A stretch of DNA of 64,000 nucleotides from a virus: the IMG/VR virus record IMGVR_UViG_3300027754_000042, one strand, 5' to 3'. The position numbers and the translations under genes were made by a program. Below the pieces are notes generated by a model that worked only from the letters and a program-made list of their open reading frames with translations, searched no databases and was not told the DNA's origin. Of this stretch, positions 5,467 to 63,054 are shown piece by piece; position 1 is the first letter of the stretch, and each line of letters starts with the position of its first letter.

Positions 5467-6762
5467 TTGGACAAAACATTGACAAAATATATTCCATACA
5501 CAGTTGACGATATCAAAAAGTCTTCAGCCCGAGAGCTATTCACCGTCGTATCCACTTTTGCTGGTGGTGGTGGTTCATCAACTGGCTATCGCATCGCCGG
5601 CGGTAAAGTTATTGCCATGAATGAATTTGTAGAAGAAGCCATAAAAACATATTCAACAAATTTTCCAGATACCAAGATTATCCCAGGCGATATCAAAAAG
5701 CTTACTGGGCTTGATTTTCTTCGTGAAGCAAATCTCAAGCCTGGTGAACTTGATATCTTCGATGGGTCACCTCCTTGCTCCGCGTTCTCTGTTGCTGGTA
5801 AACGAGAGAAGCAATGGAAGGGTGCTATAAAGAAAACCGATAGCTCGTTTGAGATTGACGAATATGGTGAGCTAGAATTCGTCGAGGGTGAGACGTTTAC
5901 GAAAACAGGCATCAAAACTTATAGTGATGGTATGGTTGTTGAAGCTATTGAAGATTTATTCCTAGAGTTCGTTCGCATCGCAAAAGATATCAAGCCTAAG
6001 GTTATCGTTGCAGAAAACGTCAAGGGTATCACAATGGGCGAAGCGCGCAAGAAGCTTGTAGAGTTTCAGAACGCATTTGAAAACATTGAACCTGGTTATG
6101 TTGTCACGCATCACGTTTTGAGCGCCGCAAATTATGGAGTTCCGCAAGCGCGTGAGAGACTGTTCTTTGTCTGTGTGCGTAGTGATGTTGCTAGTGTGAT
6201 CGGTATGAACTGGATGAATGCCGAGACAATGACAAAGCCACCCGAAACAACTCCTATCATTCGTTCTGGTGGGCGTCGTCTAAGCGAGAATAGTCAACAC
6301 ATCTCATTGCGCGAAGCAATTGAAGATATCGAAAATGATCCTGAAGAAATCCAGATGCTTAAGGATTATGTGATGGGTGGCTTTCAAAAAGATTGGATCA
6401 CGAAGCTTCCATTTAATCCCAAGCGTCATACCAAGCCGAGCGATACTGAGTATCGGTCATGGAATCCTACAGGTTCATGTTTCAATATGATTCGCCCTTG
6501 CCCAGAACTTCCATGCCCTACTCTAACGCAGAGAGGGCAACAGCTTTCTGTGTCTGGTGTGTTTCATTACGCAGAGAATAGAAAGTTTACCATCAAAGAG
6601 TTGAAACGAATCATGAGTCTTCCAGAAGACTACATATTGTCTGGAAACTTTGATAAGCAAGCAGAACGAATCGGGCGCATGGTTGCTCCTAAAATGATGG
6701 GTGCGCTTGCGTCTAACATCTACAATAAAATATTGAAACCCTATAAGGAAGCTACACAATGA
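5467..6762 (+). CDS. C5 cytosine DNA methyltransferase family enzyme, probable carboxymethyltransferase (start uncertain)
   Basis: Motif I FAGGGG, IV GSPPC, VI ENV, VIII PQARERLF; motif X reads IGRMV rather than IGNAV. Confidence 0.9.
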   Translation: MDKTLTKYIPYTVDDIKKSSARELFTVVSTFAGGGGSSTGYRIAGGKVIAMNEFVEEAIKTYSTNFPDTKIIPGDIKKLTGLDFLREANLKPGELDIFDGSPPCSAFSVAGKREKQWKGAIKKTDSSFEIDEYGELEFVEGETFTKTGIKTYSDGMVVEAIEDLFLEFVRIAKDIKPKVIVAENVKGITMGEARKKLVEFQNAFENIEPGYVVTHHVLSAANYGVPQARERLFFVCVRSDVASVIGMNWMNAETMTKPPETTPIIRSGGRRLSENSQHISLREAIEDIENDPEEIQMLKDYVMGGFQKDWITKLPFNPKRHTKPSDTEYRSWNPTGSCFNMIRPCPELPCPTLTQRGQQLSVSGVFHYAENRKFTIKELKRIMSLPEDYILSGNFDKQAERIGRMVAPKMMGALASNIYNKILKPYKEATQ

Positions 6763-56841: not shown

Positions 56842-57045
56842 ATGCAATTTTTAGCCAAACCTAATCTAAATAACACCACTGGTCAGAAGGTGTTCGATAC
56901 GTTAGCCGAGGCCGTTAAGTACCTAGAATACAAAACTGGGCACAAAATGGACTTTGTTGTCGATAGAAAGACGAAGGTAAAAACCTATGACTGGGAAATC
57001 ATCGGTAAGCTCAAGCGGATCAAAGCGCAACCCGATTGCGATTGA
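56842..57045 (+). CDS. hypothetical protein
   Basis: SD GGAG. Confidence 0.6.
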   Translation: MQFLAKPNLNNTTGQKVFDTLAEAVKYLEYKTGHKMDFVVDRKTKVKTYDWEIIGKLKRIKAQPDCD

Positions 57046-57187
57046 TTTGGCTACTACTAAATACCATGCTCGTGTCGTTGCATCTCGCAAAGGCTACAAG
57101 CGTAAAGGTCGCGTAGCTCAGCTGGATAGAGCAACGGATTTCTACTCCGTGGGCCGAGGGTTCGAATCCTTCCGCGACCGCCACTAA
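56987..57187 (+). CDS. ArfA-like basic peptide reading through tRNA-Arg
   Basis: KRNPIAIDL...RV...K.GYKRKG resembles ArfA; SD GAAGGT 8 nt upstream. Confidence 0.45.
   Translation: MTGKSSVSSSGSKRNPIAIDLATTKYHARVVASRKGYKRKGRVAQLDRATDFYSVGRGFESFRDRH
57107..57183 (+). tRNA. tRNA-Arg(TCT)
   Basis: Cloverleaf, loop TTTCTAC, CCA. Confidence 0.95.
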
Positions 57188-57203
57188 CAAAGAGGTTGAC
57201 AAG

Positions 57204-57569
57204 GTGACAAAGATCGTTTATAATGGTTGCTTCGGTGGCTTTGGTTTGTCCGATGCCTGCATTCGTAGATACCTTGAGATAAAGGGTGTCCCTTTTACCG
57301 AGGAAGAGTCCGAAGTTAGTTTTCGCAATGTCCGATTCCGTATCGGTACTAGCGTAATGAATGAGGGTGAATTTTTCAATGATTGGAATATTGAGCGGAC
57401 AGATCCTGTTCTTGCTCAGGCCGTAGAGGAACTTGGTAAAGCTGCGTCTGGCTATTGTGCTGACCTGTGCATCCGTGAGTTAGCACCTGGTACGCGGTAC
57501 ATTCTGCGAGAGTATGACGGTTCCGAATGGATCGAAACCGAAGATGAAATGGAATGGAGTGTAGCATGA
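57204..57569 (+). CDS. conserved phage protein
   Basis: KIVYNGCFGGFGLS, RTDPVL, EYDGSE. Confidence 0.8.
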   Translation: MTKIVYNGCFGGFGLSDACIRRYLEIKGVPFTEEESEVSFRNVRFRIGTSVMNEGEFFNDWNIERTDPVLAQAVEELGKAASGYCADLCIRELAPGTRYILREYDGSEWIETEDEMEWSVA

Positions 57570-57909: not shown

Positions 57910-57987
57910 CCTCCGTTGGTGTAGCGGTCCAACATACCCGCCTTTCAAGCGCGGAGATCATCGGTTCAAATCCGATACGGAGGACCA
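57910..57987 (+). tRNA. tRNA-Glu(TTC)
   Basis: Cloverleaf, loop CTTTCAA, CCA; irregular anticodon stem. Confidence 0.9.
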
Positions 57988-57998
57988 AAAAAGAATGG

Positions 57999-58055
57999 TT
58001 GACAAAAGAGTGCCAATATGCTACTATATAAGAATAGAGAATACGCTGTTTGACA
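57999..58055 (+). promoter_or_regulatory. tRNA-operon promoter followed by rrn boxA-like element
   Basis: TTGACA-N17-TACTAT; GCTGTTTGACA at 58045-58055. Confidence 0.65.
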
Positions 58056-59570: not shown

Positions 59571-59645
59571 GCTCTTGTACGCATCTGGTGAAGCGACCCC
59601 TCTGTCTAAGGGGTGAGGAGGGTTCGATTCCCTTCAAGAGCGCCA
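59571..59645 (+). tRNA. tRNA-Asp(GTC)
   Basis: Loop CTGTCTA, G73, CCA. Confidence 0.92.
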
Positions 59646-59665
59646 TAAAAAATGAAGGATCATAT

Positions 59666-60628
59666 ATGCAGCCTGTTGCAGTCTTTTGTAAAGAACCAGA
59701 ACTATCTGTTTATTGGACACTCACAGATTTCTGCAATTTTAGTTGCAACTATTGTCCATCTTTTCTTCATAGTGGTGAATATCACAAAGGTGTATCGCAA
59801 GGATTTCCTACTGACGAACAGATAATAGCATTTGTTGATAAGCTTGAAGAGTTGGCTAAAACTCGCAGACTTGATGTTGTGTTAAGTGGCGGAGAACCAA
59901 CTTTGCATCCTATGCTACCCTACATTGTTTCCAGATTGCGTGATAAATGCATATTGTGTATAACGACCAATGGTTCGCGAGGAAATGATTTTTGGAAAAG
60001 TATCCTTCCTATTTCAGCCGTTCAGTTATCTCTTCATCCAGAGTTCACAAAATCTAATAAGGTCAATAGTCTCTCAAGAATTATTATAGATAGTGGAACT
60101 AACTTGAGGTACAATCTATCGTGTGATCCTAATAATTGGGAAAAAGCAATGGCTTTATATGATGAATTAGATGACGAGTTTAAAGTTTTTGTTACTCCAA
60201 AAGTCTTGCAGCATTGGGATAAAAACGATAAAATAAATCGCACGACTTATAGATACAGCAGGGAACAATATAACTGGATATCAGACACATTAAAAAAATA
60301 TGAAGATTATATTGCAAATAACAAAAAAAGAGAAACTAGGTCTAACCCTAAAATGATCTTTTCTGATGGGTCAACTATCTCAGCAATGAAACTTGGACTT
60401 ATAACGCTGAATAATTGGCACAATTTCGAAGGATGGAAATGCCATGTTGGGTCGGAATCCATTCATGCTTCATATTCCGGTGATGTTTTTGCTGGAGTGT
60501 GTGGTTCAAAATTATTAGGAAAGATTGATAATTTTGAATTATTTGATGACTATATAATCTGTCCTAGACATCGCTGTACATGTCCTTCGGATATTAAAGC
60601 GAATAAGCAAATAGTTTTGCCCCTGTAG
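59666..60628 (+). CDS. radical SAM protein; stop codon inside tRNA-Leu
   Basis: CNFSCNYC, SGGEPTLHP, TTNG, C-terminal Cys cluster; SD GAAGGA. Confidence 0.88.
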   Translation: MQPVAVFCKEPELSVYWTLTDFCNFSCNYCPSFLHSGEYHKGVSQGFPTDEQIIAFVDKLEELAKTRRLDVVLSGGEPTLHPMLPYIVSRLRDKCILCITTNGSRGNDFWKSILPISAVQLSLHPEFTKSNKVNSLSRIIIDSGTNLRYNLSCDPNNWEKAMALYDELDDEFKVFVTPKVLQHWDKNDKINRTTYRYSREQYNWISDTLKKYEDYIANNKKRETRSNPKMIFSDGSTISAMKLGLITLNNWHNFEGWKCHVGSESIHASYSGDVFAGVCGSKLLGKIDNFELFDDYIICPRHRCTCPSDIKANKQIVLPL

Positions 60629-60695
60629 TCCAACTGGTAGAGGCACCGGATTTAGGTTCCGGGTGGTGGGAGTTCGAATCTCTCCAGGGGCACCA
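60619..60695 (+). tRNA. tRNA-Leu(TAG), short variable loop
   Basis: Loop TTTAGGT, A73, CCA. Confidence 0.9.
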
Positions 60696-60710
60696 ATATA
60701 AGGATGCATT

Positions 60711-61169
60711 ATGCAAAAGATGATCGTGCTTGACAATGTGTTTGATCCTGTTATACTGGAACAGTTGAAAGCGTTTGATTATGGTCCGCCAATGCCACAG
60801 CGTTGGTACGATTACGGCGTTAGCCCATTGCATGAAAAGATCCTCGATATCGCGAAGGAGCATTTTGATCTATCGCAGACAACTGGTTATGAAATGTGGG
60901 TCAATCAAAAAGCCGTTGGTTGGCATTTTGACCACGATGAGTACATATATAAGCGAACAGAGGAACTGATATTTCCTGCTGTGAGCATCGTGTACTACGC
61001 ACACATCGAAAACATGCAAGGTGGTGATTTCACGTCCGAGAGTTTTCGATGTACGCCTAAGACAAATAGGTTGGTCATGTTCTCTTCTGACATTTACCAT
61101 GCTGTGTATGATTACACAGGTACACGATTTGCAATTAGTATGAATCCGTGGAATAACAGGCCCGTATAG
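60711..61169 (+). CDS. 2OG-Fe(II) oxygenase; stop codon inside tRNA-Leu
   Basis: WHFD, GG, PKTNRLVMF, H.V, R. Confidence 0.85.
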   Translation: MQKMIVLDNVFDPVILEQLKAFDYGPPMPQRWYDYGVSPLHEKILDIAKEHFDLSQTTGYEMWVNQKAVGWHFDHDEYIYKRTEELIFPAVSIVYYAHIENMQGGDFTSESFRCTPKTNRLVMFSSDIYHAVYDYTGTRFAISMNPWNNRPV

Positions 61170-61236
61170 TCCAACTGGAAGAGGCGTCGGTTTCAAACTC
61201 CGAATGTTGTAGGTTCGAGTCCTACTACGGGCACCA
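61160..61236 (+). tRNA. tRNA-Leu(CAA), short variable loop
   Basis: Loop TTCAAAC, A73, CCA. Confidence 0.88.
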
Positions 61237-61251
61237 ATTTAAAGGTATATC

Positions 61252-61848
61252 ATGCAGAAATTAAATTTGTTTTCAACACCAGTAGCAATTTTTGATTTGC
61301 CAGATTTTGAAAGAATCAATAAAATTATTTTAGATGGCAATCTCAAAGGTGTTGCTGAGCAAAATGGTTCAGATACTTTTGAGTATTCACAAGACAGAAA
61401 TATCTGGAGTCATAGATATAATGAAGGTATAAATATTCTTCATGATTTCTTTTTGGAATCTGCTGCCAAATATGCAACTGAATTTTTTGAGATGGAATAT
61501 AAACCAGATTTCTTTAGACATGCTAGAGGGTGGATTAATTTTTGTAAATATGGGCAAGAATATAGATTTCATAGTCATCGAATGACTACGATTGCAGCCA
61601 CTTATTATGTGGATGTAGGAGATAAAGGTGGGATCATTCGACTACTCGATCCTAGATCGACGTTAGGTTGGATTAGTCTTAATCCTAAACATTATAATGT
61701 GTTCAACTATAAGCCAAAAGCTGGACAGATGATTATGTTTCCTGGGTGGCTAGTTCATCAAGTGTCGCACAATCAAACCGATAAAGATCGTGTGGCAGTG
61801 ACAACAAATATGAATCTTATTCAGAAGCACTATGCTACCTTAGTGTAA
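61252..61848 (+). CDS. TIGR02466-like 2OG-Fe(II) oxygenase; stop codon inside tRNA-His
   Basis: LFSTP, WIN, HSH, DPR, FPGWLVH.V, R. Confidence 0.85.
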   Translation: MQKLNLFSTPVAIFDLPDFERINKIILDGNLKGVAEQNGSDTFEYSQDRNIWSHRYNEGINILHDFFLESAAKYATEFFEMEYKPDFFRHARGWINFCKYGQEYRFHSHRMTTIAATYYVDVGDKGGIIRLLDPRSTLGWISLNPKHYNVFNYKPKAGQMIMFPGWLVHQVSHNQTDKDRVAVTTNMNLIQKHYATLV

Positions 61849-61909
61849 TTGGTAAGCACCCGGTGTTGTGGACGCCGGAGTTCAAGTTCGAATCTTGGAG
61901 GTAGTGCCA
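61834..61909 (+). tRNA. tRNA-His(GTG), lacking G-1
   Basis: Loop TTGTGGA, G1-U72, G73, CCA. Confidence 0.9.
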
Positions 61910-61918
61910 ATATAAATA

Positions 61919-61993
61919 GATCCTAGAGCATGACTGGCTATGCGGGTGTCTCTAAAACATCGAATACGGGTTCAAGTCCCGTTAGGATCACCA
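61919..61993 (+). tRNA. amber suppressor-type tRNA (anticodon CTA)
   Basis: 7 bp acceptor GATCCTA/TAGGATC, loop CTCTAAA, TTCAAGT T-loop, A73, CCA. Confidence 0.85.
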
Positions 61994-62538: not shown

Positions 62539-62632
62539 GGGTGAGTTGATGCTATGGCGTGTGCATCCCCGGACTGTAAATCCGGTCCCTATGTGGTAAA
62601 CAATGTAGGTTCGACTCCTACCTCACCCACCA
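62539..62632 (+). tRNA. tRNA-Tyr(GTA), enlarged D arm
   Basis: Loop CTGTAAA, long variable region, CCA. Confidence 0.88.
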
Positions 62633-62978: not shown

Positions 62979-63054
62979 GCCGTCTAAGCTAATCTAGTGA
63001 AAGCGCCTGCCTGAAGAGCAAGAGAGCTTGGAGCGTAACCAAGAGACGGCACCA
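62979..63054 (+). tRNA. tRNA-Phe(GAA), divergent
   Basis: Acceptor GCCGTCT/AGACGGC, loop CTGAAGA, T-loop AGCGTAA, CCA. Confidence 0.82.

Follow-up and report, generated by a model that had tools for sequence, protein, structure and literature searches.

Three consecutive phage genes whose stop codons lie inside the next tRNA: probable accessory inserts in the slots of a viral tRNA array

Why should three consecutive protein-coding genes of a phage have no stop codon of their own and take one from within the tRNA gene that follows each of them? This question was raised by a viral DNA stretch of 64,000 nucleotides (IMG/VR record IMGVR_UViG_3300027754_000042; the window, hereafter, at its full length), in which a radical SAM gene and two genes encoding 2-oxoglutarate/Fe(II)-dependent (2OG-Fe(II)) oxygenases, designated oxygenase 1 and oxygenase 2, are interleaved with tRNA genes on the same strand (Table 1). 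An earlier reading made from the letters alone (the sequence-only reading) had proposed that translation and tRNA maturation exclude each other on each transcript, which would provide a built-in timer or a dependence on ribosome rescue, and that the tRNAs may also serve as anchors for cassette exchange. The evidence discussed here inclines, with more confidence than doubt, towards another explanation, in which optional accessory genes would be packed in the slots of a tRNA array and closed by the tRNA's own stop codon, at junctions that recur and are tolerated.

The stop positions and the start gaps of 15-20 nt described in the sequence-only reading were confirmed to the base by ARAGORN, Rfam, the list of open reading frames (ORFs) and the sequence itself. 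The TAG closing the radical SAM gene corresponds to positions 8-10 of tRNA-Leu(UAG), the last 10 nt of the gene being tRNA positions 1-10, and the TAG of oxygenase 1 corresponds to positions 8-10 of tRNA-Leu(CAA). The TAA of oxygenase 2 falls at positions 13-15 of tRNA-His, in the D arm/loop, and the 3' overlaps of the three genes with the next tRNA thus amount to 10, 10 and 15 nt, respectively. No in-frame stop was found ahead of the tRNA in any of the three genes, either in the ORF table or in the sequence, and the stops are complete triplets lying 7-12 nt within the tRNA, not incomplete T or TA stops. On the 5' side, the distance from the previous CCA to the ATG is 20 nt for the radical SAM gene and 15 nt for each oxygenase, and an AAGGA or AAAGG Shine-Dalgarno sequence occurs in every one of these gaps. 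The three genes showed no enrichment of the codons matching the downstream tRNA (CUA, UUG and His codons).

It could be argued that this arrangement is an artefact, made up of decayed pseudo-tRNAs, unreal ORFs or a TAG that is not a stop, and indeed both Leu tRNAs lack a long variable arm and the phage has tRNAs with CUA and UCA anticodons. However, the closing tRNAs scored 51-55 bits in Rfam (cut-off of 29 bits) and have intact acceptor stems, and all three proteins matched Pfam families (cut-offs of 29.5 bits for radical SAM and 27 for both oxygenases), PHROGs and NCBIfam agreeing with these assignments. The cluster motif CxxxCxxC of the radical SAM protein is present as C-NFS-C-NY-C. Moreover, all three genes are under purifying selection, with ratios of nonsynonymous to synonymous divergence (dN/dS) between 0.07 and 0.13: 0.13 for the radical SAM gene relative to its homologue in locus L001 (72% amino acid identity, dS of 1.4), 0.07 for oxygenase 1 relative to L003 and 0.10 for oxygenase 2 relative to L004. 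As to the code, 13 of the 75 long ORFs of the window close with TAG, with the next gene directly after, and the coding coverage of a 155-kb relative was 0.89 with the standard code, 0.92 if TAG is translated and 0.89 if TGA is. Recoding of TAG or TGA was rejected on stop usage and on coverage under the alternative codes, for which reason the phage is taken to use the standard code despite its tRNAs with CUA and UCA anticodons. An artefact was therefore largely refuted and is regarded as extremely improbable.

The next step in answering the question came from the comparison of the spacers between these tRNAs across 119 loci sharing the D-arm motif of the two Leu tRNAs. The spacer between tRNA-Asp and tRNA-Leu(UAG) measures 6 nt in 7 loci and 973 nt in the window only, that between the two Leu tRNAs ranges from 1 to 2895 nt, and that between tRNA-Leu(CAA) and tRNA-His measures 1-5 nt in 14 loci and 597-599 nt in 8. 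In the nearest relative, L003 (97-99% amino acid identity), tRNA-Asp is followed by 6 nt (AAGTTT) and tRNA-Leu(UAG), without the radical SAM gene, and both oxygenases are retained with their overlaps unchanged. The radical SAM gene is also missing from L004 and L005 (88% identity), where tRNA-Asp stands 6 nt ahead of tRNA-Leu(UAG), and the oxygenase 1 slot of these two loci (5790-5900 in each) holds a 36-aa ORF, MQTVHGNFVYMLCGWMYVYMKRVGEAYHYYISHRKLH, that ends with a TAA of its own 5 nt ahead of tRNA-Leu(CAA). The radical SAM gene and oxygenase 2 are also foreign in composition, with a GC content at third codon positions (GC3) of 0.28 and 0.26, respectively, versus 0.43 in the core genes, and a share of TTA among Leu codons of 28% versus 5% in the core. 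Altogether, the three genes appear to be optional accessory inserts. Since differently filled alleles have identical flanking tRNAs and no common spacer sequence, recombination within the tRNAs would be the simplest reading of the slot exchange. The proposal that the tRNAs serve as anchors for cassette exchange was thus supported, in agreement with the presence/absence variation among relatives.

These observations also bear on the idea that the moving unit would be the inter-tRNA stretch itself, made of a Shine-Dalgarno sequence and an ORF with no stop, viable only in phase, in which case the overlap would be the footprint of joining and not of erosion. Such stop-less cassettes would be consistent with the exchange of whole, unrelated spacers between identical tRNAs, with the size of the empty slots (1-6 nt), with the same protein families preceding many different tRNAs, and with the occurrence of the radical SAM gene in three slots in the same phase, the junction codon being identical in two of them. 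However, no recombinase, homing endonuclease or reverse transcriptase adjoining the inserts was found with Pfam and PHROGs, target duplications and chimeric acceptor stems were not seen, and family members with their own stop exist. In addition, survivorship in an array whose spacers measure 1-6 nt would give equally exact-looking joints. A mobile unit of this kind was consequently judged very unlikely.

Whether stops inside tRNAs are peculiar to this window was addressed by a survey, by ARAGORN and ORF scan, of two samples of viral contigs comprising 238 loci in total. Set A combined the 119 motif-sharing loci with the window and the first relatives identified (1,656 tRNAs), and set B consisted of 119 loci chosen by a generic T-loop...CCA pattern alone (642 tRNAs), a junction being defined as an ORF of at least 100 aa whose end lies within the next same-strand tRNA or at most 300 nt ahead of it. 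The stop overlapped the tRNA in 65 of 213 unique junctions of set A (31%), 27 of them at position 8, a further 62 junctions (29%) had their own stop 2-12 nt upstream, and in 9 the stop straddled base 1 of the tRNA. Overlap was also found in set B, in 21 of 125 junctions (17%), with 8 at position 8. After collapsing by protein family, anticodon and position, 307 events remained, of which 74 (24%) overlapped the tRNA and 65 read into it; among conserved protein families, 51 of 124 junctions overlapped the tRNA (our own sum).

The positions of these stops were not those expected from random frames. Position 8 closed 32 of the 65 read-ins, versus an expectation of 19% (binomial p = 4e-8), and the read-in frames were split 14:37:14 (p = 3e-4), p-values that overstate independence given that the survey loci are partly interrelated. 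In the favoured frame, 33 of 37 read-ins ended by position 10, relative to a baseline of 58%. This baseline derives from the tRNAs themselves, since a stop at positions 8-10 occurs in 58% of the distinct tRNAs of set A and in 51% of those of set B, TAG alone accounting for 53% and 45%, respectively; the two remaining frames are open as far as position 37 and position 54-57 (medians). The class-wide pattern is therefore non-random and biased to the shortest possible read-in. The sequence-only reading had suggested a survey of phage tRNA clusters for overlaps above chance, and a class-wide excess at position 8 was found; however, three overlaps in a row, with a probability of about 0.03-0.07, are ordinary for this lineage because the base rate is ~0.3 per junction. 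Full-text literature searches turned up no report of phage genes whose stop lies within a tRNA, and the arrangement is a general, little-described architecture.

The explanation preferred here, namely accessory genes packed between tRNAs and closed by them, could accommodate these results in the following way. The usable space of an array would begin just past a CCA and finish at base 1 of the tRNA that follows, and more than half of phage tRNAs offer a built-in backstop at positions 8-10, for the most part U8-A9-G10 (TAG), with a D-loop TAA or TAG in many of them. An insert without its own stop, whether lost or never had, would then be closed 2-4 residues later when in the right frame, because the tRNA supplies the stop. 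Such junctions would recur and be tolerated, and selection would purge the variants with long read-ins.

Closely related junctions support this tolerance, since they drift. In one array protein family of 20 members (family 0), some members close with a TAA of their own, 4-5 nt ahead of tRNA-Cys or tRNA-Ser, and the stop of others is located within tRNA-Ser, Glu, Phe or Val, at position 8, 12, 13, 20, 21 or 35; relative to tRNA-Ser(GCU) alone, the endings lie at -4, 12, 21 or 35. All five members of the oxygenase 1 family overlap the tRNA, with stops at positions 8, 13 and 19. Oxygenase 2 of L004 and L005 stops at a TAG in positions 8-10 of tRNA-His, in another frame than in the window owing to a small indel, and its homologue in L107 closes with a stop of its own 9 nt ahead of tRNA-Met. 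The same holds for the radical SAM homologue of L157, whose stop is at -13. For each of the three genes, homologues were thus found either with their own stop 9-13 nt before the tRNA or with no adjoining tRNA. Relatives with own stops would amount to a natural "insert a stop" experiment, in which the genes do not appear to have been lost. The claims of a tuned timer and of a required dependence on rescue were not sustained, given that the junctions drift between close relatives and that some homologues of each of the three genes are free of the overlap.

What the layout would imply for the transcript was considered next to these comparisons. A consensus scan revealed no promoter or terminator in the gaps of 15-20 nt, which have room for a ribosome-binding site only. 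Because the gaps hold neither signal, the three genes are probably co-transcribed with the tRNAs, and the strongest sigma-70-like site upstream of the array (57196-57224) would be a candidate start of the tRNA-mRNA precursor; a further strong site was found by the same scan at 57999. RNase P cleaves at tRNA +1. The predicted RNase P sites lie 7, 7 and 12 nt before the three stops, and since the cut would fall before the stop, the processed message would have no stop codon. It would follow logically that, on each transcript, translation termination and tRNA maturation are mutually exclusive. While a ribosome terminates at positions 8-10, both the D arm and the 5' strand of the acceptor stem would be occupied by it, and folding of the tRNA would therefore have to wait until it departs. 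Normal termination would require RNA still uncleaved by RNase P; once cleaved, the stop-less message would be directed to rescue by transfer-messenger RNA (tmRNA) or Arf factors and to decay, in line with the known fate of non-stop mRNAs (PMC3989581). The likely sequence of events would be translation before processing, not a tuned timer. When ~70 nt of leader were folded together with the tRNA, the z-scores lay between -0.9 and -1.1, and no leader structure rivalling the cloverleaf was found.

Two further, weaker sigma-70-like matches were noticed inside the oxygenase genes, one in the 5' end of oxygenase 1 (60730-60757, 11/12, with an extended -10, also present in L003) and the other in the 5' end of oxygenase 2 (61297-61325, 10/12). 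Transcripts from these positions would bear the downstream tRNA without a translatable ORF.

The sequence-only reading had also linked the overlaps to an ArfA-like ORF. This mini-ORF, which starts at position 56987, reads in frame through tRNA-Arg(UCU) (57107-57183), base 1 of the tRNA being at a codon boundary, and meets its first stop just beyond the CCA. It had no match of its own in Pfam (E up to 10) or among PDB sequences. However, it is 56% identical to mini-ORFs of L073 and L014, which scored 34.8 and 43.0 bits, respectively, against the Pfam ArfA family (PF03889; cut-off of 25.5), a further copy in L074 scoring 35.6 and that of the relative G003 scoring 25.3. The mini-ORF thus appears to be a diverged member of an ArfA-like family that is recurrent in these arrays, the relationship standing through homologues at 35-43 bits and not through a direct Pfam match. 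ArfA-like matches were also found in 5 of 50 further records, a set in which most records are less than 30% complete. Most ArfA-like copies have their own stop 6-8 nt before tRNA-Lys, the stop-less form being restricted to the clade of the window. Two near-complete relatives have a tmRNA gene of the permuted alpha type, namely G002 (154.7 kb) and G003 (167.8 kb, bearing terminal repeats); SmpB and ArfB were not found in the relatives. Since tmRNA and ArfA-like genes are both present in the lineage, the proposed link to rescue is reasonable and was borne out in part.

Three points weigh against the explanation based on tolerated packing. First, the radical SAM gene ends at a TAG in positions 8-10 in all three slots in which it was found, Asp|Leu-UAG in the window, Asp|Gln-CUG in L001 and Cys|Gly-GCC in L107, at a dS of ~1.4 and at the same alignment codon in two of the three. 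This regularity exceeds the prediction of simple drift and is the best argument for rival readings, and survivorship in a near-spacerless array can explain it. Second, the lineage invests in rescue, through a tmRNA and an ArfA-family mini-gene, which would be understandable if the phage produced non-stop messages by design. Third, the partial interrelation of the survey loci, stated above, makes the frame bias less secure than its p-values suggest.

The first two points, together with the necessary loss of the stop codon upon the RNase P cut, as read from the sequence, and the bias of the read-in frame to position 8, would fit a selected coupling. Enzyme synthesis would compete with tRNA maturation, and the phage tmRNA and the ArfA-like factor would handle the non-stop products, so that the arrangement would serve as a timer or would gauge rescue capacity. 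The absence of a stop before tRNA-Arg in the ArfA-family mini-ORF would fit as well, being similar to the non-stop regulation of arfA (PMC3989581). However, the junction positions differ between relatives that are 88% identical, homologues of all three genes have own stops or no tRNA, unrelated viral contigs likewise overlap at 17%, most ArfA-like copies keep their own stop, SmpB and ArfB were not found, and the leaders show no special structure. Selection against long read-ins accounts equally for the frame bias. A selected coupling was therefore considered unlikely. Its most elaborate form, a punctuated operon in which RNase P would deliberately generate non-stop messages for the enzymes and the ArfA mini-gene, and the phage tmRNA and ArfA-like factor would set the share of untagged protein, seems quite improbable; if true, tRNA supply, accessory enzyme output and rescue capacity would be balanced within one transcript.

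Beyond the three genes, the window represents a T4-like phage's replication module, with a family B DNA polymerase sharing 51% identity with cyanomyophage gp43. The same molecule also encodes a DnaB-like helicase, an SMC/Rad50-like ATPase and a ribonucleotide reductase of class II. No close cultured relative was found by tblastn of the three proteins against 50,697 phage records, the best match reaching 37% identity. ARAGORN identified 20 tRNA genes on the plus strand at 50.8-62.9 kb of the window, 17 of which were confirmed by Rfam, which added two further ones. The calls for tRNA-Asp (59571-59645) and tRNA-Tyr (62539-62632) fell below the Rfam gathering score, and an extra tRNA at 62979-63051 (39 bits) was recognised by Rfam only, with no ARAGORN call.

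Some of these tRNAs have unusual features. In the tRNA-His of the window, position -1 is T and position 73 is G (A in L004), so that the usual G-1:C73 pair is lacking. A tRNA-His without this pair is an alphaproteobacterial trait, and together with the alpha-type tmRNA it suggests an alphaproteobacterial host. The tRNA with the CUA anticodon, if active, would read both TAG stops within the Leu tRNAs; past its first TAG, the radical SAM frame meets the next TAGs at tRNA positions 20 and 35. The two Leu tRNAs, 77 nt each, are devoid of the long variable arm of bacterial tRNA-Leu. Among the survey loci (L007-L244), short forms were also observed in the related ones, for 91 of 94 Leu(UAG) and 62 of 63 Leu(CAA) tRNAs, and in the generic viral sample ~1/3 of the Leu tRNAs were short, long arms being retained in Ser and Tyr tRNAs.

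Table 1. Coordinates of the features discussed. Positions refer to the window unless another record is named.
Feature	Position	Strand	Basis
ArfA-family mini-ORF, 40 codons	56987-57187	+	Translation; homologues
Sigma-70-like promoter match, 12/12, strongest upstream of the array	57196-57224	+	Consensus match only
Suppressor-like tRNA(UCA)	57910-57987		Rfam 54 bits
tRNA-Asp(GUC), left anchor of slot 1	59571-59645	+	ARAGORN; cloverleaf fold; below Rfam gathering score
Leader, 20 nt, with AAGGA Shine-Dalgarno	59646-59665	+	Sequence; no site in promoter scan
Radical SAM gene, 320 aa/codons	ATG 59666, TAG 60626-60628	+	Pfam PF04055, 43.4 bits; phrog_13987
tRNA-Leu(UAG), 77 nt	60619-60695	+	ARAGORN; Rfam 55.0 bits; acceptor stem intact
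Oxygenase 1, 2OG-Fe(II), 152 aa	ATG 60711, TAG 61167-61169	+	Pfam PF13640 (2OG-FeII_Oxy_3), 28.3 bits
tRNA-Leu(CAA), 77 nt	61160-61236	+	ARAGORN; Rfam 53.9 bits
Oxygenase 2, 2OG-Fe(II), 198 aa	ATG 61252, TAA 61846-61848	+	Pfam PF13759 (2OG-FeII_Oxy_5), 62.7 bits; phrog_81; TIGR02466
tRNA-His(GUG)	61834-61909	+	ARAGORN; Rfam 50.7 bits; fold
Suppressor-like tRNA(CUA)	61919-61993		Rfam 50.9 bits; 9 nt past tRNA-His
Permuted alpha-type tmRNA	G002:C1:139301-139690 (L246)		RF01849, 107 bits; ARAGORN tag ANDNAPISYALAA
Permuted alpha-type tmRNA	G003:C1:15208-15595 (L247)		RF01849, 107 bits; ARAGORN tag ANDNAPISYALAA
Stop-in-tRNA ORF and Phd-like coding sequence of Synechococcus phage RB11-B	7162-7362, 8631-8804 (L245)		

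If the overlaps are merely tolerated packing, as is judged most likely, they represent a useful regularity and not a new mechanism. For annotation, gene callers that mask tRNAs will truncate or overlook such genes, as exemplified by an unannotated ORF of Synechococcus phage RB11-B, a problem affecting about one quarter of the ORF-to-tRNA junctions of viral arrays. From the evolutionary standpoint, tRNA arrays appear to be racks of slots in which accessory genes are swapped. The layout also predicts a steady supply of non-stop mRNAs during infection, which would be a possible reason for the presence of tmRNA and ArfA-like genes in tRNA-rich phages, and a coupling to RNase P and rescue gains plausibility from the tmRNA and the ArfA-family mini-gene of the relatives.

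Regarding known systems, the window provides a bacterial-virus counterpart of the tRNA-punctuated layout of organelles. In mitochondrial tRNA punctuation, protein genes are flanked by tRNAs, RNase P and RNase Z free the mRNAs, and stops are incomplete or overlapping (review PMC4394434). In the phage, genes similarly abut tRNAs, with 5' gaps of 20, 15 and 15 nt, the stop is not an independent element, and tRNA processing of a presumed polycistronic precursor would set both mRNA ends. However, the phage stops are complete, lie inside the tRNA and would be lost by processing, not completed by polyadenylation; moreover, transcription and translation are coupled in a bacterial virus, and the genes are apparently optional, accessory inserts and not an invariant core. 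A literature search combining tRNA punctuation and phage returned organelle papers only, among the matches listed.

A second parallel is the Escherichia coli arfA gene, which is controlled through a non-stop mRNA made by RNase III, its product depending on tmRNA capacity (PMC3989581). As in arfA, a predicted endonuclease site lies within each ORF ahead of the stop, a likeness of geometry only, and an arfA-like layout may exist 2.5 kb upstream, in the ArfA-family mini-ORF, where RNase P would replace RNase III. Unlike arfA, the three genes encode a radical SAM enzyme and two 2OG-Fe(II) oxygenases, not rescue factors, and a conserved stop-less layout of the arfA type was not found, own-stop homologues existing for the radical SAM gene (L157), for oxygenase 2 (L107) and for many array families.

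The array itself belongs to the familiar class of T4-like phage tRNA clusters interspersed with accessory ORFs, which have same-strand tRNAs, an ORF content that varies between relatives and, in cyanomyophage arrays, 2OG-Fe(II) oxygenases. The cultured Synechococcus phage RB11-B (PV261925.1) carries a 2OG oxygenase within its tRNA array, and its unannotated ORF, of 66 aa, is located between tRNA-Ala and tRNA-Asn and has as its stop the TAG at positions 8-10 of tRNA-Asn. An annotated Phd-like antitoxin coding sequence of the same phage overlaps tRNA-Ile by 1 nt, and RB11-B could serve as a cultured system for experiments. In the annotations of cultured phages, stops lie mostly 6-14 nt upstream of the tRNA, and 8-14 nt upstream in two other cultured arrays. 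Unlike these cultured T4-like arrays, the window contains three long, conserved genes in a row without a stop codon of their own.

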